Assembly (NCBI GenBank): GCA_034521815.1
Contig: JAXHLW010000013.1
Location: 1,120,001 to 1,184,000, forward strand
Source: Trueperaceae bacterium
GTDB lineage: Bacteria; Deinococcota; Deinococci; Deinococcales; Trueperaceae
Direction of reading: 5' to 3'
Length of the DNA: 64,000 nucleotides
Positions within the stretch are counted from its first letter, which is position 1; each line of letters opens with the position of its first letter. Below are positions 29,783-47,872 of the stretch, in pieces. A model generated the notes under the pieces. The model saw only the letters and a list, made by a program, of their open reading frames with translations, ran no database searches and had not been told where the DNA came from. The translations under genes and the position numbers were made by a program.

Positions 29783-32769
29783 GCCGGCGACGACATCGCC
29801 CGCCCGGAGGCCGAGCCGACGGCCGCTCCCCGACGGTCCAGCGCATCGTCCGCGTCGCGACCGTGCTCGCTGTCGTGCTCGCGTGCGCCGGCATCGCGGC
29901 GGCCGAGACGGTCCAGATCGACACGGGCGGCGACCCCGAAGCGCGGCTGGAGCTTCGCACCGTCGTGTTGCCGGGCGGCGAGCAGCGCGAGCTCTACGTG
30001 GTGTCGGCCGAGCGGGTCGTCGTGACGCGAGGCGACCTGGTGCTGATCGCCTCCCGACTCGAGTTCGATCCCGACGCCGGCGTGGTTCGCATCGTCGGTC
30101 GCGGGCGCGTCGAACGCCCGGGCGACGTGCTGGTCGGCGACGATCTGGTCGTTCAGCTCGACGACGGTCGCCTGGACGGCGGCGACGTGCTCGTCATCAC
30201 CGACAGGGTCGACGTCCGGGGCGAGCGCGCCCAGCGGGTCGAGGGGCGCATTCACCTGCTCGAGGGGCGATTCAGCCCGTGCGGCCGCTGTGGGCAGGAG
30301 ATCGAGGACTACGCGTTCGTGGCCGACCGGATCGAGATCCTGCCGGGCGATCGCCTGATCGCGTGGCAGGTCGTGGTCCTGATCCGGGACGCGCCGTTCG
30401 TGGCGCTCCCCCTGCTGGTTCTACCGTTGGCCGAGCCGGCCCGGATCCCTCGCCTCGAGATCGTGCGCGGCGGCGAAGACGCGCAGGCGGAGATCGCCGT
30501 CGACTGGCCGTACGTCTCCGGGCCGAACGCGTTCGGCACCTTCCGTGCCCGGCTGATCATCGACGTGGAGCCCGACCAGGGCGGTCCGGTCGGCGACCGT
30601 CTCCTCGGGGGACGGCCCGAACGGGCGTACCTGGCGGGAGGATTCGACCATCGCTTCTACGACGAGCGGGGGGCCGGCCGCATCGAAGTCGACTACCGGC
30701 CCCGGTTCGCGTCGGAGCGTTCCGACGACCCGGCGACCACCGACCCGGAGCTCAGGTTCGAGGCCCGCTACGACTCCGACGCGGCCGCGGGCGATCCGGT
30801 CGTTTCGGTACGCCTGGCCCGCGACGACGACGCCCGCCCGAACCTCGTCGAGGCCGAGGCCAGCGTCGCCGCCCACGCCGGCGGTTTCCGGACCGAGGCG
30901 TCCAGTCGCGTCGCCATCCCGTTGGAGGCCGGCGTCACGACGCGCCCCAGCTGGGACGGCTCGCGAACGCCGCGAACGGCTCCCGTCCGCCTCCGCGCCG
31001 AGGGCGAGGAGGCGTTCCCGTTCCGTGCCGGCGCGCTGACGCTCGACCGGCTTTCCGTCGACGTCGGCGTGTTCGAGGACGCTCCCGACCCGACGAACCG
31101 GAGTGCCGTGGCCCTGGGGCGGCCGTTCGTCACGGCCGGACGGGCGGAGCTCGCTCACGGGCTCACGCTGGCCCCGGTCGACGTGGCGGGCGTCGAGCTC
31201 AGCGGGCGCACCTCGTTCGTGGGCCGGTACTACGACACCGGCGAGCGACAGATCGACTGGGACAGCGAGCTCAGGGCTCGGCGTTCGCTCGGCGATCTGG
31301 GCTCGGTCGAGCTCCGTCTTCGCCGGGACGCGGCCGAAGGCGAGACGCCGTTCGCATTCGACCGGATTCCGCTCCGCTCGCGAAGCGACCTGGTCGCCTC
31401 GCTCTCTCTCCGCCCGCTCCCGGGAACGCGGCTGTCGGCGGAGGGCGGCTGGCTGCTCGAGGACGACCGCGCACCGGACGAGGTGGGCCTGTTGCCGACC
31501 ACCGTCCGCCTCGAAGCGTTCACGAACGTGAGGGCCATCGACCTGTCGCTGGTGCACGAGGCCGACCCCGCGGAAGGAGACCTCGGCACCGCTCGGCTAC
31601 GGCTCGACGTCCGCGTACCCTCGAGCGCTTGGACGGCGCGCCTGGAGGCGGACGCGCTGCTCGACCTGGACCCCGCCAAGTCGCCGGGCCGGTTCGACGA
31701 CGCGCCACGCGACACCTCGCGCGCCGAGGCGACGGCGTCCCTCGGCGCGACCGATCTCCTCGTCGCGAAGGCTTCGGGCGGTTTCGAGGTCGAGCCGGTC
31801 CGAAACCCGGAAAGCTTCTGGACGCCGCTCGAGCTGTCGGCGACGCTGGGCACGTTGGCCGCCGACGACGCACGGCCGGGGCTCGAGGCGTTCTGGACGT
31901 TCGATCCCGACGACGGCGAGACCGAGGAGGCCGGATACCGGTTCGCGGTCGATCTCGGTCCCGTCCGCGGCGAGATCGAGCAGCGCTTCGGCCCGCCGGG
32001 AGGCGCTCCGGGCCGCCACAGCTTCGCGGTCGTCTGGCGCGATCTCGGCCGCGTCACGGTGGACGGCGTCGAGCTGGTGCCTGCGTCATGGCTGGGGCTC
32101 GAGCCCGACCCGGCCGCGATCCGGCGGCTGTCGGTCCGCGTGGAGGACACGGGATCGGTCCCAGGGGCGCGCTTTCGCGCGGAGTACCGCACCAGCCTCG
32201 TGCCCCGCGGCGACGAGGTCGTTCGGCAGGGCACGAGGTTCGAGGCCACGCTCCGCCTGAGCGAGCGTCGCTTCGCGTCGGGCCTCGTCCGCGCCGCCGT
32301 GGATGCCTTCGTCGACGTCCCGCTCCCGGACGACGGACAACCGACCGCCTATCTGCGGCGCGCCAACCTCCAGCTGGGCCTCGACGTCGCCGGCCGCGTC
32401 GGCCTGCAGGGCACGTTCGGCTACCGTGGCAGCTACGACGTGACCACGGAATCGGTTCGGAGCGGTCGGCTGTCGTTCGAGGAGGTGTCGCTGGTCGTGC
32501 GAGCGACGAACGAGCTGTACCTCGGCGCCACCCTCGACGACGTCTGGGAGATCGTCGACGACGATCCCGCCAGCGACCTGGCCCTGGACCCGAGGCCCAC
32601 GCTGTTCGCGACCTGGGACCGCTGCTGCTGGGCGCTGTACACGAGCTGGGATACCCGCTCCGGCGAGGTCGTGCTCACCCTCGGCGCGCCAGGTAGGAGC
32701 GAAGGACCCCAGTTCACGCTCGATCAGGGGCCCTCCATCCCCTGGGGCGAGGAAGGAGCGGCTCCATGA
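29779..32769 (+). CDS. Large outer-membrane protein, LptD-like
   Basis: Signal peptide, N-terminal beta-jellyroll-like region with FSPCGRC, long beta-rich C-terminus ending DRCCWA; follows two LptF/G genes. Confidence 0.7.
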   Translation: MSRRRHRPPGGRADGRSPTVQRIVRVATVLAVVLACAGIAAAETVQIDTGGDPEARLELRTVVLPGGEQRELYVVSAERVVVTRGDLVLIASRLEFDPDAGVVRIVGRGRVERPGDVLVGDDLVVQLDDGRLDGGDVLVITDRVDVRGERAQRVEGRIHLLEGRFSPCGRCGQEIEDYAFVADRIEILPGDRLIAWQVVVLIRDAPFVALPLLVLPLAEPARIPRLEIVRGGEDAQAEIAVDWPYVSGPNAFGTFRARLIIDVEPDQGGPVGDRLLGGRPERAYLAGGFDHRFYDERGAGRIEVDYRPRFASERSDDPATTDPELRFEARYDSDAAAGDPVVSVRLARDDDARPNLVEAEASVAAHAGGFRTEASSRVAIPLEAGVTTRPSWDGSRTPRTAPVRLRAEGEEAFPFRAGALTLDRLSVDVGVFEDAPDPTNRSAVALGRPFVTAGRAELAHGLTLAPVDVAGVELSGRTSFVGRYYDTGERQIDWDSELRARRSLGDLGSVELRLRRDAAEGETPFAFDRIPLRSRSDLVASLSLRPLPGTRLSAEGGWLLEDDRAPDEVGLLPTTVRLEAFTNVRAIDLSLVHEADPAEGDLGTARLRLDVRVPSSAWTARLEADALLDLDPAKSPGRFDDAPRDTSRAEATASLGATDLLVAKASGGFEVEPVRNPESFWTPLELSATLGTLAADDARPGLEAFWTFDPDDGETEEAGYRFAVDLGPVRGEIEQRFGPPGGAPGRHSFAVVWRDLGRVTVDGVELVPASWLGLEPDPAAIRRLSVRVEDTGSVPGARFRAEYRTSLVPRGDEVVRQGTRFEATLRLSERRFASGLVRAAVDAFVDVPLPDDGQPTAYLRRANLQLGLDVAGRVGLQGTFGYRGSYDVTTESVRSGRLSFEEVSLVVRATNELYLGATLDDVWEIVDDDPASDLALDPRPTLFATWDRCCWALYTSWDTRSGEVVLTLGAPGRSEGPQFTLDQGPSIPWGEEGAAP

Positions 32770-36744: not shown

Positions 36745-38262
36745 ATGAGCCAGCTCGTTCTCGGTCTCGCACGCGCTCTGTGCGTGCTTCTGCCCGTCGC
36801 GCTGGGTTTGGCCAGCGCACAAGACGCACCGCCCCCGAGCCACGGTGGCGAGGTCGTCGTCGCGATCGCCGCCGATCCGCCGGGATGGGATCCGACCGTG
36901 TCCACGTCTCAGGAGATCCCGCGCGTCGTCTACCACAACGTGTTCGAGGGCCTCGTCCGGTTCGACCGGAACGGCGAGATCGTGCCCGCGCTGGCCGAGT
37001 CGTGGACGCTTTCAGGTGATGCCCTCTCGCTCACGTTTCACGTCCGTCGGGGCGTGCGTTTCCACGACGGGCGTCCGTTGACGCTGAACGACATCGTGGC
37101 GAAGTTCGACCGGGCGCGAGATCCGGACTCGGGTCATACCAACGCCGCCTACTACGAGACGATCGACGCCCTCGTCGTGGACGAGGAGGCGCACACGGTC
37201 ACGTTCCTCCTGTCCAGGCCCACGCGAAGCCTGCTCTACGACCTGGCCCGGCCCGACTCGGTCGTCTACCCCGCCGGCACCGAGACCAGCCAGCGAGGTC
37301 GGCCCGTAGGCACGGGCCCGTTCCGGTTCGTGGAGTATCGCGAGGGCTCGGAGGTGCGGCTGGAGCGGTTCGAGGACTACTATCTGGACGGCGTTCCGTA
37401 TCTCGACGCCGTCCGGTTCAGGATCATCGGCGATCCCAACACCCGCTACGCGGCGCTGCGTGCTGGGGACGTGGACCTGATCGGCACGTCGCTCGCGCCC
37501 GAGCAGTTCCTGCAAGCTCGGCAGGATCCTTCGCTCGTCGCCACGGAAGGCACCGCCACGACGGAGATCACGCTGGCGATGAACAACGCGCGTGCGCCGT
37601 TCGACGACGTTCGCGTTCGACAGGCGATCACGCACGCGATCGACAAGCGCGCCATCGTCGAGGGCGCCATGTTCGGGCTGGGGACCGTCATCGGGACCCA
37701 CATGAGCCCGGCCGAGCCGTACTACCTGGATCTGACGGACACCTACCCGTACGATCCCGATCGCGCCCGAGAGCTGTTGGCCGAGGCCGGCTACCCGGAT
37801 GGGTTCGACGTCGCCTTCGAGCTGCCCGAGCCGTACGCGCTCGAGCGCCGCAGCGGCCAGGTGATCGCCCAGCAGCTCGCCGAGGTGGGGATCGACGTGG
37901 AGCTGAGCGTGGTCGAGTGGGGGACGTGGATCCAGCGCATCTTCCTCGGCGCCGACTACGACATGACGATCATCGGTCATTCCGAGCCGCGGGACATCGA
38001 CGTCTACGCCGACCCGGAGTACTACTTCCAGTACGAGAACCCACGGGTCGCCACCCTCGTGACCGAGGCGGAGTCGGCCTCGACCCGAGAGGCCGAGATC
38101 GCCGCCTACCGCGAGATCGCTCGCATCATCGCCGACGATGCCGTCGCCGTCTGGGTCTTCAGCCCTCCGTACCTGGTCGCCGCGCGCGAGGACGTGCACG
38201 GCTTCTGGACCGACCAGCCGACACCGGCGATCGACATGACCGAGGTCCATCGGGGGCCCTGA
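36745..38262 (+). CDS. Peptide/nickel ABC transporter substrate-binding protein (family 5)
   Basis: Signal peptide, NVFEGLV, PALAESW, RRGVRFHDG, VGTGPFRF, PFDDVRVRQAI, YDPDRARELLAEAG; AGGAGG RBS. Confidence 0.93.
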   Translation: MSQLVLGLARALCVLLPVALGLASAQDAPPPSHGGEVVVAIAADPPGWDPTVSTSQEIPRVVYHNVFEGLVRFDRNGEIVPALAESWTLSGDALSLTFHVRRGVRFHDGRPLTLNDIVAKFDRARDPDSGHTNAAYYETIDALVVDEEAHTVTFLLSRPTRSLLYDLARPDSVVYPAGTETSQRGRPVGTGPFRFVEYREGSEVRLERFEDYYLDGVPYLDAVRFRIIGDPNTRYAALRAGDVDLIGTSLAPEQFLQARQDPSLVATEGTATTEITLAMNNARAPFDDVRVRQAITHAIDKRAIVEGAMFGLGTVIGTHMSPAEPYYLDLTDTYPYDPDRARELLAEAGYPDGFDVAFELPEPYALERRSGQVIAQQLAEVGIDVELSVVEWGTWIQRIFLGADYDMTIIGHSEPRDIDVYADPEYYFQYENPRVATLVTEAESASTREAEIAAYREIARIIADDAVAVWVFSPPYLVAAREDVHGFWTDQPTPAIDMTEVHRGP

Positions 38263-38314
38263 CCCGGTCCACGCGAGCGCCGGGTCGTTCCAGCGCCGCT
38301 CCCGCATCCCGCTC

Positions 38315-39262
38315 ATGCTTCTCTACCTCGTCCGTCGCGCCCTGACCGCAGTGGTGAGCGTCGTGCTCGCGTCGCTGGTGGTGTTCTCGGCTCTGCTGGC
38401 GATCCCGGGCGATCCTGCCGAGATCATCCTCGGGCTGGACGCCTCGCCCGAGGCACGGACGGCGCTTCGAGACCAGCTCGGGCTGAACCGGCCCGCCCCC
38501 GTCAGGTATCTGACGTGGGTGGCCGGCGCGTTGCGGGGCGACCTGGGCGAGTCGATCGTCTACCAGCGCCCCGTGCGTGCCCTGATCGCGGATCGGCTGG
38601 GCGTTTCGGTTCCGCTGGCCTTGGGGGCCGCCCTGATCGCCGGCCTGATCGCGCTGCCGCTGGGCCTGCTCGCGGCGCTTCGTCGGGGCACCTGGGTCGA
38701 TCCCGTCGTGACCTCGGTCGCGCAGCTGGGAGCTGCCGTACCGTCGTTCTGGCTGGGCTTGCTGTTCGTCCTGCTGTTCGCCGTCGAGCTCGGGTGGCTG
38801 CCGGCTGGAGGCTTCTCGCCCTGGGCTCGCGATCCGGTCGCCAGCATGCGGAGTCTCGTTCTGCCGATGCTGGCGCTGGGCCTCGGCCAAGCAGCGGTCA
38901 TGACGCGCATGACGCGGTCGTCCATGATCGAAGCGTTGGCGCAGGATTACGTCCGGACGGCACGCGCCAAGGGGCTTCCACCGGCTCGCGTCACCTTCGG
39001 CCACGCGCTCCGGAACGCCCTGGTCACGCTGGTCACGATCCTCGGGCTGAGCCTCACCAACGTGTTCATCGGTTCGATCGTGATCGAACAGGTCTTCGCC
39101 CTTCCTGGGCTCGGGCAGCTGGCGCTCACGGCGATCGGCACGCGCGATCTGCCTCTCGTCCAGGGGGAGATTCTGCTCTACGCCACGACCATCATCGTGT
39201 TGAGCTTCCTGGTGGATGCGTCGTACGCGCTGCTCGACCCGCGGATTCGGTACGAGGCATGA
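38315..39262 (+). CDS. Peptide ABC transporter permease (DppB/OppB-like)
   Basis: PGDPA, GDLGES, PSFWLG, QDYVRTARAKGL (EAA loop), HALRNAL, LDPRIR. Confidence 0.93.
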   Translation: MLLYLVRRALTAVVSVVLASLVVFSALLAIPGDPAEIILGLDASPEARTALRDQLGLNRPAPVRYLTWVAGALRGDLGESIVYQRPVRALIADRLGVSVPLALGAALIAGLIALPLGLLAALRRGTWVDPVVTSVAQLGAAVPSFWLGLLFVLLFAVELGWLPAGGFSPWARDPVASMRSLVLPMLALGLGQAAVMTRMTRSSMIEALAQDYVRTARAKGLPPARVTFGHALRNALVTLVTILGLSLTNVFIGSIVIEQVFALPGLGQLALTAIGTRDLPLVQGEILLYATTIIVLSFLVDASYALLDPRIRYEA

Positions 39263-40107
39263 GCACCACCTGGAGGTCGTCTTCGGCTGGGCGGCTGCTG
39301 CGGCGAGCGGGGCCGAGCTTCTGGATCGGGGGCGCCCTCATCGTCGTCGTCGTCGCCGCAGCGCTGGTCAGCTTCGTGTGGACGCCGTACCCGCCCAACG
39401 CTCTCGACTTCTCCGTGCAGCTGCAAGGTCCTAGCTGGAGCCATCCGCTGGGCACCGACCATTTCGGGCGCGACCTGCTCAGTCGCGTGCTGGTCGGGGC
39501 GCGCTCGACGCTGTACGTCGGGGTTCTGGCCGTCGGGCTCGCATTGGGCCTCGGCAGCACCGTCGGTCTCGTGTCGGGCTGGGTGGGCGGATGGGTCGAC
39601 GACGCCGTCATGAGGCTCGTGGACGTGCTTTACGCGTTTCCTGCGATTCTGATGGCGCTGCTCCTCGCCGCGGTGTACCGCCCTGGCACGTTTACGGCGA
39701 TGACGGCCATCGGCCTCGCGACCGTCCCGATCTTCGCCCGTATCGCGCGATCGTCGGCGTTGACTCTTCGTTCGGCACCGCACGTCGAGGCGGGTCGCGC
39801 CTTGGGGGCACGACCTCGCGAGGTGCTGCTGCGTCACGTCGTTCCTGGCGCGCTGTCTCCTCTCGTGATCCAGGCCAGCCTGAGCCTGTCGGTCGCCGTG
39901 CTGGCCGAGGCGGCCCTGAGCTTCCTGGGCCTGGGCACCCCGCCGGACGTGCCTAGCTGGGGCAACATGCTGCGCGAGGCTCAAGGGTTTCTCGCCATGA
40001 GTCCGTATCCGGCGCTCGTCCCCGGGTTGGCGATCGTCGCGACCGTGCTGGGATGGAGCCTTCTCGGTGACGGCCTCCGCGACCTGTTGGACCCTCGGCT
40101 CCGCTGA
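39259..40107 (+). CDS. Peptide ABC transporter permease (DppC/OppC-like)
   Basis: HPLGTDHFGRDLLSR, VEAGRALGA, EAALSFLGLG, PSWGNML, GDGLRDLLDPR; ATGA overlap with dppB. Confidence 0.93.
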   Translation: MSTTWRSSSAGRLLRRAGPSFWIGGALIVVVVAAALVSFVWTPYPPNALDFSVQLQGPSWSHPLGTDHFGRDLLSRVLVGARSTLYVGVLAVGLALGLGSTVGLVSGWVGGWVDDAVMRLVDVLYAFPAILMALLLAAVYRPGTFTAMTAIGLATVPIFARIARSSALTLRSAPHVEAGRALGARPREVLLRHVVPGALSPLVIQASLSLSVAVLAEAALSFLGLGTPPDVPSWGNMLREAQGFLAMSPYPALVPGLAIVATVLGWSLLGDGLRDLLDPRLR

Positions 40108-40134
40108 CCTGTCCATCTGCGTCGTGGACGGGTC
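40106..40134 (+). terminator. Hairpin immediately after the peptide ABC operon
   Basis: GACCTGTCCA-tctgcgtcg-TGGACGGGTC; no U-tract, so terminator function is uncertain. Confidence 0.45.
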
Positions 40135-40223
40135 GGCAACAACGCTTGCGTACGGCAACCGGGATGCAACCCTCCTCGGACAACACTCCTCTTAGGCGGG
40201 AAACCAACCGGAGGAGGTTGTCG

Positions 40224-40778
40224 ATGTCGCAAAGCACGTTAGGCGTCCACGTCCACTCGTCGCATCCAGCGTTCCTGAGTCTGATCCAGGAGGTGATGGA
40301 GCGACCGGACGTGGAGCCCCACGGAACGGGAGAGTCGGGCGTCGCGCACGTCTTGCTCGACTTCCCGCTCACGTGGACTCTTTATCAGCTCGAGCGTCTC
40401 GATAGCATCGATCGTGCTCGCACCCTCATCGTCACGCAAGCGACGCATCCTGCCTACCTCGATTGCCTCGCGAGCTACCACGTCAGCGGCGTCGCGACGA
40501 CCACGGACTCTCACGGCATCATCGCCGGTCTCTACGCAGCGGCGTCAGCGCAGCGCAGCTACCATTACCGCTCACCGTTGACGTTCATGGAGCTCCGTGT
40601 GGTCCGCCTGCTTCTGATGGGGTACGACACGCAGCGCGCAGCGAAGGATCTGGGCGTCTCGTACAAGACGGTGAACGCGCACGTCTCGAACGCGCTCTGC
40701 AAGCTGGGTTACGACAACCGAGCCCAGCTCGTCGTCCACCTGATGGGCGTCGATCCCGACTCCGACATCTTCGGCTGA
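40224..40778 (+). CDS. LuxR/NarL-type HTH regulator with an atypical (pseudo-)receiver N-terminus
   Basis: C-terminal LTFMELRVVRLLLMGYDTQRAAKDLGVSYKTVNAHVSNALCKLGYDNRAQL is a LuxR HTH; VLLDFP resembles a receiver beta3-Asp; GGAGGAGG RBS. Confidence 0.85.
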   Translation: MSQSTLGVHVHSSHPAFLSLIQEVMERPDVEPHGTGESGVAHVLLDFPLTWTLYQLERLDSIDRARTLIVTQATHPAYLDCLASYHVSGVATTTDSHGIIAGLYAAASAQRSYHYRSPLTFMELRVVRLLLMGYDTQRAAKDLGVSYKTVNAHVSNALCKLGYDNRAQLVVHLMGVDPDSDIFG

Positions 40779-40779
40779 G

Positions 40780-43266
40780 TCAGAGCCCCCACTCTCCGCG
40801 AATCCGGCGTACACGAGCTCGAATGAGCGGGTACGCCGGATCATCTTTGGGCGTGAGGTCCTTGGCCGCTTCCCACAGCTCGAGGTCCTCCGGGAACTTC
40901 CGGGCCAAGCGCACCGCCAGGTCCGCCTCGCCCGCGTGCATCACAGCCTGTCGAACGGCTTCGTCGATACGCTCGCGCGCTCGAATCACACCCGGCGCCT
41001 CCGACTCGGGTAGCAACGGTCCCTTGTACAACTCCAGTGCCTGGCGGGTATCCCCCGCGGCAAGGCAGGTTTCGAGGTCGACGGCGTCAACGTAGGGAGC
41101 CACGGCAAACCTATAAGGAATTGACTGAATATCGATGATCTGTCGAGCCCGCGAGACTGTCGCCTTTAGGGTACTCATTTGGCCCATCTCACCGTAAAGC
41201 TCGTACAGGAGTGCCTCGCCATTCAACCCCTCTGGATGCATTGCCAGGATGACGAATAGCTCGGCAAATCGCAAACTCAACCTGCGGCGGTTTCCTTGCT
41301 CCTCGAGGAGGCGGCTTCCGAAAACATTCAGGCGCACACGGTGCCCTGAACCTGACCCCACTAGTCGTTGAAGGCGGTCTACGTCGGCGTCCGGAGGCGC
41401 GAGGAGCACCCAACCGCTCCGCCCTAGACCAATAAGCACCTCAGAGTGCCCCAGCAGAAGACTATGTGCCAGACGTTCATTGCCACTTCGGAGCTCGTTC
41501 GCTGCAGCAGCGATCGTCAACTCCGCACGGAGTACAGCATCCGAAGCCACGAGTTGCTCCGAGAGCAACTCGCTCACGACCCTACGGTCCAGAGAGCCTC
41601 GCGCGGCTTTGATGAGTACGTCGGCTGCTCGAAGCCCAATCTTCTCGCTTTCATCCGAATGCCCAGCTAGTTCCTCTGCCACGGCCAGAGCAGTCGCCGC
41701 CTCGTCGAAGCGCCTCTGATGCAACAAGCCACGGACGAAATGCCGAGCCGCATAGCCTGGTAGTTGCGAAGAAAACTGACGGTAGAGCGACTCGTAATAG
41801 CGAGTTGCTTCCGCCGGACGTCCATTGACTAGCGCGTAGTCACCAAAGGTCGATACCAGGCCCTCGAGGGTTGGGGGCAGACCCACATCAACGCTGATCT
41901 GCACCCGTTTCAGTTGCTCTTCGCCAGCCTCGATATCGCCCACGAGCAACTGTGCGTAGGTCAGAAGATTGATGCTGGACAGGCGAAGCAGTTCCTCGCG
42001 AATGTCCCACTTCCTCAAGTCTTCGAGACTCTTCCTCGCCCAAAGTATTGCTCGGCGATACTCACCCAATTGAACATAGACCGATCCGATGCTGTTTGAG
42101 AGCTGGATGGATCGATGGTGCCTTCGCGCTTTGCGATACCCGTCAAAAGCCTCCTTGAACAGCGAGATGCCTTGAGTCAGATCACCCATCACAACATTCA
42201 AAAATCCGACGGCCGCAACAGTCTCGGGTGTTCGCGCGACGCTCATCGCGCGTTGCGCAATGGACATCGCCTCTTTGGGCCGAACGACTGACGCATATGC
42301 GGCTGAAAGGGCTGGGGCTTCTCGAGCGTACTTTTCAAGATACGCAGCCACCTGGTCTTGGATTTCGCTCTGTTCACCGAGACCGGCGTACGCTTGGAAC
42401 CACCAGTATCTGGCAACGGGATGCCTTGGAAAATCAATAACAAGCCGCGTTAGGAGATGCTTGAATCTTAAGACCTGTCCCTGTGCGAAGTACGCTTCTC
42501 CCACGTCATCAAGCATCTCAAGCGATTGGCTGTTGCTGAGACGAACCGCATCCTCGAACGCATTCGTAAGCTCGGCTTGGGACAAAACCGGAGGTACGTC
42601 TTCGACCCGTCGGCGGGAAGACAATCGAGCTGCACGAGCATTTTCCGATTGACCGCGTAGGGACGAAAGGTTCATGCCGTCTGAGTGTGATTGTAAGAAA
42701 TGCTCGTATGGCACGCCTGCGACCGCCGCGTTGTCGCCCAAGAGCTGTTGATTAACCCCTTCGTCAGCACCTGTCATTTCACGAACCTCAGCTGGCGTGA
42801 CCTCAAGGTCTTTCTCGGTCATTACGTCACCTGAGAAATCAGCAACGAGGCTACGCCATTCCTTTGTCTCGCCTGACCCGGCGACTGCAACCTTCAATCT
42901 GAATCGAGATCTTATCGACGTGACAACGGCGGCTCGGCAAAAAGCTGCGTTGTGGTCGCCATCGTTTACAAGAAGGAATAGAGGCCCCAGTTCTTCTGAA
43001 AGGCCCACGAGGTAGTTCAGTGCATACGAGTAAGGCATGCCGGTGCCGAACAAGGTCGCGCCCACAGACTCACGGACGGCACGGCTCAACTTGTTGCCGA
43101 TGGCGACTGAATCATCGCCCGCTTCAAGGGTGATCCAGATGAACGACGTAGATGCACCAGCAATTTCCTCAAAGACATACGACAGACCAAACTCCGGACG
43201 AGCATCGACAATCGTTGACGTCGATCGGAACACAATGGCTTTCGTCTGTCTTTCAAACCAGCCCAA
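40780..43266 (-). CDS. Large TPR-containing transcriptional regulator (degenerate MalT-like N-terminus, TPR core, C-terminal winged HTH + BTAD-like region)
   Basis: Long ORF in a low-GC block. Helical TPR-like repeats (NSIGSVYVQLGEYRRAILWARKSLE; TFGDYALVNGRPAEATRYYE). C-terminal LSLRFAELFVILAMHPEGLNGEALLYELYG..TLKATVSRAR..PYRF and ALELYKGPLLPESEAPGV. Start set at TTG 43266 (GGGAG 7 nt upstream); the ORF is open to 43323. Confidence 0.8.
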   Translation of the reverse strand: MGWFERQTKAIVFRSTSTIVDARPEFGLSYVFEEIAGASTSFIWITLEAGDDSVAIGNKLSRAVRESVGATLFGTGMPYSYALNYLVGLSEELGPLFLLVNDGDHNAAFCRAAVVTSIRSRFRLKVAVAGSGETKEWRSLVADFSGDVMTEKDLEVTPAEVREMTGADEGVNQQLLGDNAAVAGVPYEHFLQSHSDGMNLSSLRGQSENARAARLSSRRRVEDVPPVLSQAELTNAFEDAVRLSNSQSLEMLDDVGEAYFAQGQVLRFKHLLTRLVIDFPRHPVARYWWFQAYAGLGEQSEIQDQVAAYLEKYAREAPALSAAYASVVRPKEAMSIAQRAMSVARTPETVAAVGFLNVVMGDLTQGISLFKEAFDGYRKARRHHRSIQLSNSIGSVYVQLGEYRRAILWARKSLEDLRKWDIREELLRLSSINLLTYAQLLVGDIEAGEEQLKRVQISVDVGLPPTLEGLVSTFGDYALVNGRPAEATRYYESLYRQFSSQLPGYAARHFVRGLLHQRRFDEAATALAVAEELAGHSDESEKIGLRAADVLIKAARGSLDRRVVSELLSEQLVASDAVLRAELTIAAAANELRSGNERLAHSLLLGHSEVLIGLGRSGWVLLAPPDADVDRLQRLVGSGSGHRVRLNVFGSRLLEEQGNRRRLSLRFAELFVILAMHPEGLNGEALLYELYGEMGQMSTLKATVSRARQIIDIQSIPYRFAVAPYVDAVDLETCLAAGDTRQALELYKGPLLPESEAPGVIRARERIDEAVRQAVMHAGEADLAVRLARKFPEDLELWEAAKDLTPKDDPAYPLIRARVRRIRGEWGL

Positions 43267-43373
43267 TGCGATTCTCCCGTGTTGTCGGTGACACGAAGAG
43301 CCGGTCCACGTGGCCGACGGCAACTAGGATGTCGGCTACACATACGCCGGTTTCGTTCGACATGCTCGCCTTA

Positions 43374-43392
43374 AGTATATTTGCCAGCAAAT
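43374..43392 (-). promoter_or_regulatory. Putative -10 box (TATACT) abutted by palindrome ATTTGC-N2-GCAAAT upstream of the TPR regulator
   Basis: Plus strand agtata (43374-79) and atttgccagcaaat (43379-92). Confidence 0.45.
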
Positions 43393-43586
43393 GCAGGGTG
43401 AGCCACTCTAATGATTTGCCGACATGTTGTGCGATATGAACCCCGTGTCTCGAACACTGGCGCCGGCGAAAAACTTCATAATCGATCACATGGTCGCTGT
43501 GGAGCACCCATCTCGTACATCGAGCGTCAGACTGGGACAGATTGAAGCCTTCGTACAATGGGGTTCCGACACTCATGCTCACACAA

Positions 43587-43620
43587 TTAAGCGGGCCCGC
43601 AATCAATGCGGACCCGCTCA
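43587..43620 (-). terminator. Strong hairpin downstream of the small peptide gene
   Basis: Minus strand UGAGCGGGUCCGCA-uugau-UGCGGGCCCGCUUA followed by AUUGUGU. G-U pairs fit minus-strand transcription; starts 17 nt after the peptide stop. Confidence 0.7.
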
Positions 43621-43637
43621 GTCAGTTTGCCGGAGAG

Positions 43638-43739
43638 TTAGCGCTGCGAAAGATGAACGCCCGCGAGAACCATCAACGGAACGTTAACAACAGCAACGAA
43701 GAGTGCAGTAGCGAAGATGCGCTTTCCAGTGTTCTTCAT
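43638..43739 (-). CDS. Small secreted pro-peptide, 33 aa: MKNTGKRIFATALFVAVVNVPLMVLA-GVHLSQR
   Basis: Translated by hand (below the ORF-track cutoff): ATG 43739 to TAA 43638, AGAGGA/GGGA upstream. Basic n-region, hydrophobic h-region, VLA|G cleavage-like site, followed by a terminator-like hairpin. Confidence 0.75.
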   Translation of the reverse strand: MKNTGKRIFATALFVAVVNVPLMVLAGVHLSQR

Positions 43740-43783
43740 TTTGTCCCATCCTCTTCTTGCACCCAGTACAGGTGCACAAGCAC

Positions 43784-43993
43784 CGTCCCAGGCCTCCCAA
43801 CCTGTTCTCGGACGATGTTGTTGGGGTCTCCCAACCCCAACGCTCTGGGTGATTAAACACCCACTTCTGACCGGTTTTGCTTAGGTTGTGGCTATCGAAC
43901 CTCTCCCAAGCTCCCGATCTCTTCCGAATACGGCGGTGACAACCACCGTTACGTTGGGGGCCTCCCAACCCTTGTTCCAACGTGATCGGAAAG
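43784..43993 (+). ncRNA. Putative structured non-coding element with repeated YCUCCCAA-loop hairpins
   Basis: CTCCCAA at 43794, 43828, 43903 and 43962, at least three of them enclosed by stems; G-U pairs favour the + strand. Confidence 0.5.
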
Positions 43994-44153
43994 TAGCACG
44001 CGATGCTTGAAAGCGTCAAGAGAAAAAGCGAACAGGCTCAAGGCCGCCATTTTCTCCGCACCGAACCCGAGTCAACTCCGTTGACGTATCGTGTGCGGCA
44101 TGGCGGAGGACAGCCACATCAGAAGTCGCGTTGAAGAAGTTCACCCTGGAGCC

Positions 44154-45326
44154 ATGCTTGAAAGCGTCGTCCAAGGGTGGGTATACCTCGAAGACTTCGA
44201 TAGAGGTATTGAAGCCTATCGCCACATTGAAACGCCGACAGCCGACGACGATCGATGGCTTGGCGTCTGTCATTTCCAACGCGTTGAAGATGCTCTTGCA
44301 CAGCAAGCATTCGAAAGAGCGATTACAAAAGGGCAGCAGGCGGCCAGAGTCAACCTCGCGCATCTGCTTAGAATGTCAGATCGTGCCGATCGCGCGACCG
44401 ATGAACTTCAGAATGTGGATTTCGCCCGGTTGACCCCATACGATCAGGTCTTTTTCCTTCGCGTGAAGAGTATCCACGAAGAGACAAACGGGAACCTTCG
44501 CGAAGCACTTCGCTTCTCTGAAGAGGCGTGGCGAAGGCTTCAAGGCATTCCAGAGTTCTCGATCCTCGCGCCATCCATTCTGTCTCAACTGGGAATTCTT
44601 CACGGGCGTATAGGTCGTGCCCAACGGGCCATATGGTTTCTCGAGCGAGGCATTCAACTGACCTCTGGCCTCCAACAACTCAAGGCTCGCATTCGTTGGG
44701 CAACGGTCTTGGTAGCGCAAGGTCGAACCGCTGATGCCACTGAGGCGCTGGCCAACGTAGATCCATCCATGATTCCGGAACCAATGACAGTCGAAGTCGA
44801 GTGGCTTAAGGCTGAAATCGCTTGGTTACTTGGAAACAGCGAAGACGCCCTGCAGCGCTACGCCGTCGCCATCGCCGTCGCTCAGCGCCATAATGTGGTC
44901 TACGAAGAGTTCCTTTGTCAGTTAGCCCTTTCAACCATCTTTGCGTTCCGGGGTGAAGATGCTTTGGCAACCGAGCACCTACAAAGAGCACAAGGGCTTG
45001 TAAGTGATCGCTCTGACCAACTGACGTATCGGTTTCGCGAGATACTCATCTTCTCGGCAATTGGGCTGTACAGAGACGATCATGCCATCCGAGAGTTGCT
45101 TGAGACCTCAGAAGCCTTTGGCGATATGGGCTTACTTCAAGAACAAGGATTCGTTCGCTTTCACATATGCCATCTCAAGAAACGAAGTGGCGACAGTTCC
45201 TATACAGAGGAGCTTGACGCTATATATCTACTCGCTAAGAGTCTTCAGAACCCAGCTTTTCTTGAACGTGAGCTTCGGCTCGTTCCCACGATGAAAGATG
45301 TCATCGAAATGGAGCTCCCAGCCTAG
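44154..45326 (+). CDS. TPR-only protein (~390 aa, no DNA-binding domain evident)
   Basis: Repeated TPR-like helices (ILSQLGILHGRIGRAQRAIWFLERGIQL; WLKAEIAWLLGNSEDALQRYAVAIAVA). Start uncertain (44091, 44100 or 44154). Confidence 0.8.
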   Translation: MLESVVQGWVYLEDFDRGIEAYRHIETPTADDDRWLGVCHFQRVEDALAQQAFERAITKGQQAARVNLAHLLRMSDRADRATDELQNVDFARLTPYDQVFFLRVKSIHEETNGNLREALRFSEEAWRRLQGIPEFSILAPSILSQLGILHGRIGRAQRAIWFLERGIQLTSGLQQLKARIRWATVLVAQGRTADATEALANVDPSMIPEPMTVEVEWLKAEIAWLLGNSEDALQRYAVAIAVAQRHNVVYEEFLCQLALSTIFAFRGEDALATEHLQRAQGLVSDRSDQLTYRFREILIFSAIGLYRDDHAIRELLETSEAFGDMGLLQEQGFVRFHICHLKKRSGDSSYTEELDAIYLLAKSLQNPAFLERELRLVPTMKDVIEMELPA

Positions 45327-45395
45327 CTCCGGTAGCACTACCCGTTACGTGGTCAGGGTAAGAACTTTGTAAGACCCCATCGATACACTCAAGTC

Positions 45396-45492
45396 GTGGA
45401 TTCGAGGTGACTCTCCCCTTGTCATCGCCTCGCTCCCATTCTCTTCCGAACGGCGGACCCCGTACCTCCCATACGGGGTTCGCGCCTTTTGT
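45396..45492 (+). ncRNA. Putative ~95-nt sRNA with C-rich loops ending in an intrinsic terminator
   Basis: TACACT (45384-89) just upstream; hairpin CGAGGTGAC-tctcccctt-GTCATCGCCTCG; hairpin GGACCCCGTA-cctccca-TACGGGGTTC followed by GCGCCTTTTGT. Confidence 0.5.
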
Positions 45493-45579
45493 GCCACAGA
45501 CATGATTCTCGTGCCCGCCAGGTGTCGACGGGCCGCGCCGAGCCCAGGCTGGCCCTCGTCCGCCTCTCGGCCGCGTTCC

Positions 45580-45652: not shown

Positions 45653-47872
<2,220 letters not shown>

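Follow-up and report, generated by a model that had tools for sequence, protein, structure and literature searches.

A candidate peptide-signalling cassette in a Trueperaceae genome: a conserved 33-codon signal-peptide gene beside a TPR protein of Rap-like predicted fold

We analysed a 64,000-nt stretch of a Trueperaceae bacterium (Deinococcota; GenBank assembly GCA_034521815.1, contig JAXHLW010000013.1, positions 1,120,001 to 1,184,000 of the forward strand), hereafter the window, in which positions 40224-45326 hold a 33-codon pre-peptide gene with a structured 5' leader, a divergently transcribed protein made only of tetratricopeptide repeats (TPR; c0), a larger TPR regulator (c1) and an orphan LuxR-type protein. 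By analogy, and with a confidence that leans somewhat beyond even, we read this block as a peptide-signalling cassette that would work like the RRNPP quorum-sensing systems of Bacillota. Judged by sequence it falls outside the RRNPP family, which it would resemble in its working, if it works as proposed. The gene content and conservation of the block, the anatomy of the signal peptide, the predicted fold of c0, the hypervariability of the locus and the structure of the leader RNA are direct observations, and are described below. The initial annotation, made from the sequence alone, had proposed such an RRNPP-analogous circuit; its adjacent signal-peptide genes, Rap/NprR-like fold and C-terminal effector domain stood up to the present analysis, while the regulator it placed beside the peptide gene as its partner, its inclusion of an importer and the strand of its RNA hairpins did not.

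A 33-codon gene with the layout of a Sec signal peptide

The 33-aa open reading frame (ORF) that the initial annotation had pointed to lies on the minus strand at 43638-43739, behind the ribosome-binding-site (RBS)-like sequence AGAGGATGGGA. The four nearest homologues of c1, all from the same genus and 32-44% identical to it, each have a 33-codon ORF ~260-320 nt upstream with the same first nine residues as in the window. A degenerate DNA pattern for these nine residues, run on one genome each of 185,579 species, returned 46 matches, of which 44 carry the small ORF (43 complete at exactly 33 codons, and one cut by the end of the locus), the remaining two, in an archaeon and in Prevotella, being chance matches. 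The 44 loci belong to other species-level genomes mostly labelled Trueperaceae or Deinococci, in agreement with the earlier description of the genome as of Deinococcota type. As the pattern fixes the N-terminus by construction, loci were also sought from the c0 side: 8 of 10 c0 orthologue loci in other genomes have a small ORF under a strict filter and a further one has a 35-codon variant, so that 9 of the 10 carry the ORF or a close variant, and some of these ORFs are altered at position 4, which is why the pattern had missed them. The same filter is passed by 8 of 1000 random 1600-nt single-strand windows of the window's genome. Chance falls far short of explaining the arrangement, since dozens of genomes show the small ORF with these neighbours. 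Six cassette contigs (L040, L041, L060, L067, L071 and L085) are binned as Hyphomonadaceae, Thiopseudomonas, Rhodothermales, Ferruginibacter, Bacteroidales and Actinomycetota metagenome-assembled genomes; mis-binning seems likelier than transfer, because the S1, LuxR and permease proteins of these contigs are 64-92% identical to those of the window.

Among 40 distinct genes, Ala26 and Arg33 are each present in all 40, the former encoded by all four Ala codons and the latter by CGN as well as AGG. Each of the three stop codons is found among these genes, always at codon 34. Invariant residues with interchangeable codons, together with the mixed stops, indicate that the small ORF is a real gene of fixed length under protein-level selection. 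Position counts over the same 40 genes, read by rule and with no dedicated predictor, match the layout of a type I (signal peptidase I) Sec signal peptide: an n-region (residues 1-9) with positive charges at Lys2, Lys6 and Arg7, an h-region (residues 10-20) whose sequence varies freely while staying hydrophobic, a helix breaker near -6 (Pro21, 30/40), and small residues at -3 and -1 (Val, Ala or Gly at position 24 in 40/40, Val24 in the window; then Ala26). Gly27 follows in 37 genes. Predicted cleavage after Ala26 would free residues 27-33, which read GVHLSQR in the window. Within this tail, positions 28-30 each show at least seven residue types, and the end is again constrained (Ser31 in 35 genes, Gln32 in 32, and the invariant Arg33). 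Two loci, L043 and L071, have a tail identical to the window's seven residues though their hydrophobic cores differ widely.

The constant neighbour is a TPR-only protein of Rap-like predicted fold

The ~828-aa regulator c1 had been taken as the partner of the peptide gene, a role that the comparison of loci reassigns to c0, a 408-aa protein on the plus strand (ORF 44091-45326, with the database entry starting at 44100) to which Pfam matches TPR models only. By tblastn, c0 is divergent from the small ORF in 38 of the 44 loci, and the other six have at most 444 nt on that side. By comparison, c1 is found in 23 loci and is absent from seven that have at least 4 kb of flank, and the LuxR protein is found in 17. 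The 227 database relatives of c0 are all unnamed or called 'TPR repeat protein'.

An AlphaFold2 model of c0, with a predicted local distance difference test (pLDDT) score of 95, describes an all-helical protein, read here as cytoplasmic. Its top match in Foldseek is RapJ-CSF (4gyo; E 8e-7, template-modelling score 0.74-0.77 by target), and peptide-bound Rap structures take ranks 1-2. Comparison with VIA placed RapF-PhrF first (Z 29.0), followed by four phi3T Rap-pheromone entries (28.4-28.5) and RapJ (28.2), with NprR at 27.7 and 25.9 and AimR at about 22; seven of the top eight rows are Rap, phage Rap or NprR, these seven spanning Z 27.7-29.0 over 328-336 residues at a root-mean-square deviation of 3.6-4.1. 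On these models the sensor part of c0 has a Rap/NprR-type TPR fold, which makes the protein a candidate peptide receptor.

In at least 25 loci c0 takes a longer form of about 550-570 aa with an extra C-terminal domain of ~150 aa, which is lacking in the window's clade (five loci), the window itself holding no remnant. An hhalign comparison of c0 with c1 runs from the TPR region through the winged helix into the start of the BTAD domain (probability 93.7%, E 2e-7). This alignment suggests that c0 and c1 are paralogues, that the extra domain is a winged helix with a partial BTAD, and that a DNA-binding domain has been lost from c0 in the window's clade. The earlier proposal that the effector DNA-binding domain sits at the C-terminus thus holds, and it extends to the 'TPR-only' family through the winged helix of the long form.

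Divergent signal-peptide ORFs accompany many c0-like genes in Deinococcus and a further family

In a sample of 364 genomes from the whole phylum, 129 have a match to a c0 profile: 61/127 in the window's family, 44/125 in the family named Deinococcus by NCBI (f2), 18/19 in f5, 5/68 in f4, 0/23 in f3 and 0/1 in f6. The c0-like family reaches up to six paralogues in one genome searched and includes cultured Deinococcus species. The paralogues of f2 and f5 are about 640-660 aa long, and both of those tested pass the Pfam cut-off for BTAD (25.0 and 27.7 bits), with the domain at the C-terminus; NCBI names the Deinococcus proteins 'SARP family', and the organisms it gives for them include Deinococcus sp. 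HMF7604, D. aluminii, D. metallilatus, D. petrolearius and D. rubellus.

For 22 of these f2 and f5 genes the upstream sequence extended over at least 1000 nt, and beside 14 of them stands a divergent small ORF with a canonical signal peptide and a tail of 12-25 residues, most of the paired starts lying 1-110 nt apart. Control strands gave 1/22 (co-directional) and 1/22 and 2/22 (downstream). These 22 genes and the c0-homologue loci examined under the strict filter overlap and are not independent. The check proposed at the outset, that homologues of the regulators should have adjacent small signal-peptide ORFs, therefore came out positive for orthologues and paralogues of c0 alike.

The paralogue-linked ORFs have ordinary, non-conserved n-regions, and their tails form conserved families. 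At four f5 loci (L124, L126, L128 and L130) small ORFs of 36-39 codons share a conserved P-P-x-x-C-x-x-C tail, which may be a disulfide-cyclised or metal-binding peptide, and another group of five small ORFs shares a G-I-T/A-x-K/R(-P) tail. Three ORFs bear tandem repeats (L091 in G013, L135 in G060 and L136 in G056), each with a unit of 6-10 residues in two or three copies after the signal peptide: 2x AGLEHR at a c0 orthologue locus, and 3x AASSGTFPP and 2x ASGATAFGGG at paralogue loci. Tandem repeats of this kind suggest that the functional entity is a short peptide released from the precursor, and tandem pheromone units are reported for RRNPPA propeptides in passages of two papers (PMC11343458; PMC9765709).

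A structured leader RNA precedes the peptide gene

The peptide gene is preceded on the minus strand by a leader of ~245 nt (43740-43985), which separates its ATG from a promoter-like element at 44019-43990 consisting of TTGACG, 18 nt, and TGC-TACTTT; the pattern TTGAC-n17/18-TG-n-TA is kept at the same place in the aligned loci. Directly 3' of the small ORF lies a terminator-like, GC-rich hairpin of 12 bp (43595-43622, minus strand), with a weak U tail in the window; many relatives have equivalent post-ORF hairpins followed by T runs. Consensus scans of 43300-44200 returned no promoter and no terminator, and both candidates were recognised solely from cross-locus conservation and folding.

Conserved blocks, including one at the RBS, recur across 41 leaders. 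Each leader forms 3-5 hairpins with a GGGA loop (mean 3.3, vs 0.77 in shuffled sequences), those of the window having their loops near 43964, 43831 and 43797, and GGGAG occurs 3.8 times per leader on the sense strand vs 0.1 on the antisense. One hairpin near -90 could be aligned in 34 loci: 83.5% of its cells are paired (64.7% in shuffles), the covariation score is 0.61 vs 0.25 in shuffles and at most 0.27 in slid controls, and the U.G pair closing the loop is invariant. As hairpins had been picked by requiring four inner pairs, the unbiased test concerns the outer six pairs only, and these show CG, GC, UA, AU and GU alternatives. The leader has a fold z-score of -4.7. The motif GTTGGGAGRC occurs seven times in the 2.63-Mb genome, three of them in the leader, which also carries a conserved GGAAGAG-n-GGGAG block, and the RBS block resembles the loop motif (L040-L085). 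The 'C-rich hairpin RNA elements' of the initial annotation thus exist as hairpins, but they belong to the minus strand, present G-rich GGGA loops and form the 5' leader of the small ORF.

We found no Rfam family at gathering threshold within the cassette. As in CsrB/RsmZ, each leader hairpin shows the same purine-rich, GGA-containing loop, which the RBS resembles, and cmscan finds a faint resemblance of the leader to the flg-Rhizobiales motif (E 0.066, below gathering). Unlike both, its GGGA loop is closed by the invariant U.G pair, it is the leader of a coding gene, and no CsrA (PF02599) was found in the window's genome, which is 83.5% complete; on that ground CsrA was set aside as the reader of the hairpins. 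We propose the leader as a candidate new class of cis-regulatory RNA.

The cassette is a sharply bounded, hypervariable block

Within the genus, the cassette coincides with a low-GC block (41080-45357) that holds the peptide gene, its leader, c0, and c1 minus its last ~100 codons. GC content is 0.53-0.59 in the block and 0.65-0.73 in its flanks, the drop, from about 0.70 to 0.54, spanning 41000-45500. DNA homology to three same-genus genomes is unbroken from ~34050 onward, stops at 41040-41078, within the 3' end of the c1 gene, and resumes at 45358-45396, just beyond c0. Inside the block only 43638-43928, which takes in the beginning of the small ORF and some of the leader, aligns in all three genomes, and G005 alone also aligns part of c0 (44160-44919, 69%). 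Protein identities to the three genomes follow the same borders: 80-94% for the LuxR protein and 70-90% for the binding protein of the importer, as against 32-44% for c1 and 42-64% for c0, with the S1 protein 75% identical in G005 only. Compared with its G007 counterpart, c1 is almost unchanged over the final ~70 residues and 34% identical over the remainder. The blocks of G005 and G019 are low in GC too, as are those of other genera, which makes low GC a property of the cassette and not a sign of one recent import. In being sharply bounded and hypervariable between conserved flanks the block resembles pherotype loci, which counts in favour of a peptide-signalling cassette.

We also considered that these genes might be neighbours by conserved synteny only and not form one system, to which we give a very small chance. 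The cassette does sit between near-core genes, with RluD or the importer on one side and an rpsA-like S1 gene on the other, and c1-family genes are often found elsewhere without a peptide gene, up to five per genome. Yet the peptide gene, leader and c0 stay together in 38 of the 44 loci, including rearranged ones such as L071, they have been lost together in same-genus genomes, and they diverge together as one block. Within the genus c0 is present in 4 of 11 genomes, and in four same-genus genomes without c0 RluD directly adjoins the LuxR gene. The S1 ribosomal-protein homologue adjoining the cassette (45653-47872, plus strand) is a 739-aa protein with at least five S1 domains between long acidic, low-complexity N- and C-terminal extensions.

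Neighbouring regulators and importer genes

All the genes that the initial annotation had listed across 36745-45326 are present and confirmed by Pfam. The c1 regulator occupies an ORF at 40780-43323 on the minus strand, with a probable gene of 40780-43266; the start at 43266, as first annotated, is probable because relatives begin beside the invariant Trp22 and residues 1-18 have a pLDDT below 50. Its AlphaFold2 model (pLDDT 84.8) comprises an alpha/beta domain (20-185), TPR helices (250-655), a strand-helix winged-helix unit (663-740) and a helical BTAD-like domain (746-846). Pfam matches TPR_12 and leaves BTAD just short of its cut-off (21.7 vs 22.1 bits), and Foldseek with the whole model returns the STAND-TPR protein 6mfv first and then Avs3. 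No Walker A motif (GxxxxGK[ST]) is conserved in a 17-sequence alignment of c1. Genes of this family occur in 41 of 61 genomes of relatives. In c1, in long-form c0 and in the c0-like paralogues alike, the DNA-binding module is C-terminal.

The LuxR-type protein is encoded on the plus strand, convergently with c1, in an ORF at 40146-40778; its true start is probably the ATG at 40224 (gene 40224-40778), because homologues align only from residue ~21-27 onward. Pfam recognises a GerE helix-turn-helix (HTH) at residues 144-198 (E 1.6e-11) and no Response_reg domain at E up to 0.01, NCBIfam matches cover the HTH only, and its atlas neighbours are GerE-only clusters; 'pseudo-receiver', the initial annotation's term for this protein, is a putative label on these results. 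The gene is kept in same-genus genomes without the cassette.

Upstream on the plus strand lies an importer block (36745-40107) with an SBP_bac_5 binding protein (36745-38262, Pfam E 3.8e-90) and two BPD_transp_1 permeases (38315-39262 and about 39259-40107, both assigned by Pfam). It is of the peptide/nickel type and contains no ATPase genes; the NCBIfam models nearest to the binding protein are GsiB, NikA and DppA, all far under cut-off. The importer adjoins the LuxR gene in 12 of 16 loci with visible flank, other genera included, and four same-genus genomes (G001, G003, G009 and G010) lack the importer, the peptide gene and c0 alike. Farther away in the window (30696-30738, plus strand), an 'L31-Actinobacteria' leader match scores 38.7 bits against a cut-off of 35, in what looks like a Trueperaceae genome.

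Weighing peptide sensing by c0 against other readings

Several observations weigh against the reading of the cassette as an RRNPP-like circuit. First, the structural comparison called for by the initial annotation did return Rap-Phr and NprR as best matches of the TPR-only protein, but tied with domain III of MalT, a sugar sensor (Z 27.7), and with subunits of the APC close by (26.6); given this tie, the fold alone does not say 'peptide receptor'. Nor does c0 have sequence homology to any RRNPP family, Pfam and NCBIfam returning generic TPR models only, and in a profile search of PDB sequences every match was to a designed or generic TPR protein (best E 0.0016). Tail identity among loci correlates with the identity of c0 (r 0.49) and c1 (r 0.50), but the hydrophobic core correlates as well (r 0.50 and 0.64); the tail correlation thus shows shared descent only, and co-variation of tail and receptor was dropped as evidence. 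Complex prediction, run without controls on c0 and the 33-aa pre-peptide (alignments of 60 and 44 rows, respectively), scored 0.15 and 0.04 against a mark of 0.32.

The importer was also withdrawn from the signalling block, in which the initial annotation had included it while allowing that its linkage might be coincidental. A single-copy orthologue of its binding protein is present in 103 of 128 genomes of the family (a tally that includes one unpublished genome, G342, on which nothing claimed here depends), and its rate is similar in c0-positive (~48/61) and c0-negative genomes (~54/66, two of the latter inferred from genus tallies). This family-wide census led us to reject its linkage as evidence for the circuit: as a near-core gene set in conserved synteny with no phyletic association to the cassette, its position is no evidence for peptide import, though by analogy it may import the peptide.

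The pre-peptide itself raises two difficulties, since 33 residues are very few for a Sec substrate and the first nine are nearly invariant, unlike ordinary Sec n-regions. Such an n-region could reflect a cytoplasmic or membrane role of the uncleaved peptide. The product might then be a single-pass membrane protein, N-terminus in and tail out, whose invariant N-terminus is bound by c0 or c1 and which tethers or modulates these regulators or an HD-GYP enzyme. TPR domains commonly bind short linear termini, the nine N-terminal residues have stayed nearly constant although c0 identity is down to 42-64%, so small a product would suit this role, and in other lineages the gene directly downstream encodes a membrane HD-GYP protein (13 loci) or another transmembrane protein (3 loci). 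A cleavage site, however, accounts for Pro21, the small residue at position 24 and the invariant Ala26, which are otherwise hard to explain; the three hypervariable positions sit in the external tail, the tandem units of relatives fit released peptides and not a membrane anchor, and the paralogue-linked ORFs have n-regions of the ordinary kind. We regard an uncleaved membrane protein as unlikely, if well short of negligible.

The downstream HD-GYP gene (PF13487; for example L058:4595-5695) also tells against c0 as the sensor. It suggests a link to cyclic di-GMP and would suit sensing at the membrane instead; in the three other loci its place is occupied by a transmembrane protein of ~235 aa, and neither gene is found in the window's cassette. 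On such a reading the peptide would be released but sensed outside the cytoplasm, for instance by the HD-GYP enzyme, and the TPR regulators would control its production only, with no re-import and no binding to TPR. In 16 loci these membrane genes separate the peptide gene from c1, the importer and the cassette show no phyletic link, and the diderm envelope would add a barrier to re-import. Set against this, the window's clade has no such gene in its cassette, c0 with its Rap-like closed fold is the sole constant partner, and the paralogues pair TPR-DNA-binding-domain genes divergently with secreted-peptide genes and no membrane gene between them. Sensing outside the cytoplasm is, in our judgement, decidedly unlikely.

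A further point against the circuit comes from one genome (G027, 98% complete and without an orthologue of the importer's binding protein), whose locus (L093, G027:C37) keeps the GGGA-hairpin leader and the RBS block and has behind them a 12-codon ORF without a signal peptide. This would fit an RNA as the main product, acting as a protein-titrating or regulatory RNA or as a cis-regulator of downstream genes, with the ORF secondary. The 3-5 covarying GGGA-loop hairpins with their locus-specific motif, the weak flg-Rhizobiales resemblance below gathering, and contigs from RNA libraries that cover the leader all favour this possibility. We see only a slim chance for it, as the ORF is under strong protein-level constraint with fixed length, the paralogue systems have a small ORF and no space for a long leader, and a CsrA-family protein was not found in the genome at its 83.5% completeness.

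As to expression, metatranscriptome contigs from two runs of one study cover only 43659-43946, that is, the ORF and most of the leader, and a DNA contig from another study spans the whole 1.3-kb stretch. This cover is a weak hint of expression: the RNA contigs come from a single study whose runs were chosen because they hold this stretch, they show neither strand nor level, and part of the cover stems from relatives 90-95% alike. No RNA contig lies outside 43659-43946, which for contigs is no evidence of silence. An RRNPP-like account does not explain why the n-region is nearly invariant, why an HD-GYP gene follows the peptide gene in 13 loci, or why there is a leader RNA, and for these reasons we keep the rival readings alive alongside it.

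Discussion

The RRNPP-like reading that we favour would run as follows. A promoter of its own would drive the peptide gene, giving an mRNA that begins with a long structured leader and is translated into a 33-residue pre-peptide. Sec would export this pre-peptide, and cleavage behind Ala26 by signal peptidase I would yield the heptapeptide GVHLSQR. At high density an oligopeptide ABC importer, either the adjacent one or a different one, would bring the peptide back into the cell, where it would bind the TPR groove of cytoplasmic c0. In most Trueperaceae, long-form c0 would then act directly on DNA through its C-terminal winged helix, and in the window's clade c0 may act in the manner of Rap, via a partner such as c1 or the orphan LuxR protein. 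Export, cleavage, import, binding, partner and regulon are all proposed here by analogy with the known systems.

Of these, the cassette most resembles Rap-Phr of Bacillus and its phages. Like Rap, c0 is a TPR-only cytoplasmic protein in the range of ~380-410 aa without a DNA-binding domain, Rap structures are its best structural matches, and a small Sec-type pro-peptide gene stands alongside. In Rap-Phr the C-terminal 5-7 residues of the pro-peptide are the signal, and the NarL/LuxR-family regulator ComA is a Rap target; the neighbouring NarL/LuxR-family regulator of the cassette could be a target in the same way. The cassette differs in showing no sequence homology to Rap-Phr and in lying in the diderm Deinococcota. 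Its peptide gene, rather than following c0 in an operon, points away from it and has a candidate promoter and a leader to itself, and c0 comes from a family with a C-terminal winged HTH and not an N-terminal HTH, with no phosphatase function implied.

Long-form c0 also recalls NprR-NprX and PlcR-PapR, in which a TPR peptide sensor and a DNA-binding domain share one protein. Rap probably derives from an NprR-like ancestor through loss of the HTH, and the window's clade appears to show a parallel loss of a DNA-binding domain, here of the C-terminal SARP type. In NprR and PlcR this domain is an N-terminal Xre-type HTH, whereas in the c0 family it is a predicted C-terminal OmpR-type winged helix with a (partial) BTAD; neither c0 nor c1 has the N-terminal HTH of PlcR, NprR, Rgg, PrgX and AimR, or the three-helix bundle of Rap, as its effector.

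The divergent arrangement of a short peptide gene and a cytoplasmic receptor gene is shared with Rgg-SHP of streptococci, where the gene for a very short hydrophobic peptide (SHP) is divergent from that of the receptor. SHPs leave the cell by a dedicated ABC transporter and are processed by Eep, whereas the cassette peptide has the anatomy of a signal peptidase I substrate, and receptor fold and DNA-binding domain differ too. With the SARP/AfsR regulators, c1 and the c0-like paralogues share a predicted winged helix followed by a BTAD or, in c1, BTAD-like domain, the module being placed in c1, in long-form c0 and in the paralogues C-terminally behind a TPR sensor and not N-terminally. MalT-type STAND proteins provide the best Foldseek match of c1 and, through MalT domain III, a close match of c0, but the N-terminal alpha/beta domain of c1 lacks a Walker A motif in the alignment. 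To our knowledge, no SARP- or STAND-type regulator has been paired with secreted-peptide genes.

We found no description of such a system in Deinococcota or Trueperaceae in the searchable literature, a scope that excludes subscription journals and supplements. RRNPP papers frame peptide quorum sensing through TPR receptors as a hallmark of Bacillota and their phages (PMC10075063; PMC9765709; PMC12700828), and the passages available from these papers mention neither Deinococ- terms nor terms for other phyla. A paper on a Deinococcus SARP concerns, in the passages available from it, a different protein, of REC-SARP type (PMC3564903).

Taken together, the cassette and its relatives raise a broader proposal, which we hold tentatively and at a little short of an even chance: that Deinococcota hold a large, diversifying family of peptide quorum-sensing systems, independent of or very far from RRNPP of Bacillota, built from a TPR sensor with a C-terminal SARP-type module and a divergent Sec mini-propeptide gene, to which the Trueperaceae branch would add a pherotype-like hypervariable cassette, a Rap-like receptor without its former DNA-binding domain and a new multi-hairpin RNA leader controlling pheromone production. 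The paralogous pairs in cultured Deinococcus species make the question directly testable. If the proposal is true, the proteins now called 'SARP family' and 'hypothetical TPR' would be assigned a class of ligand, peptide signalling through cytoplasmic TPR proteins would have evolved or spread well beyond the monoderm bacteria, and the radiation- and desiccation-tolerant Deinococcus and Trueperaceae would have a layer of cell-cell signalling that nobody has sought.

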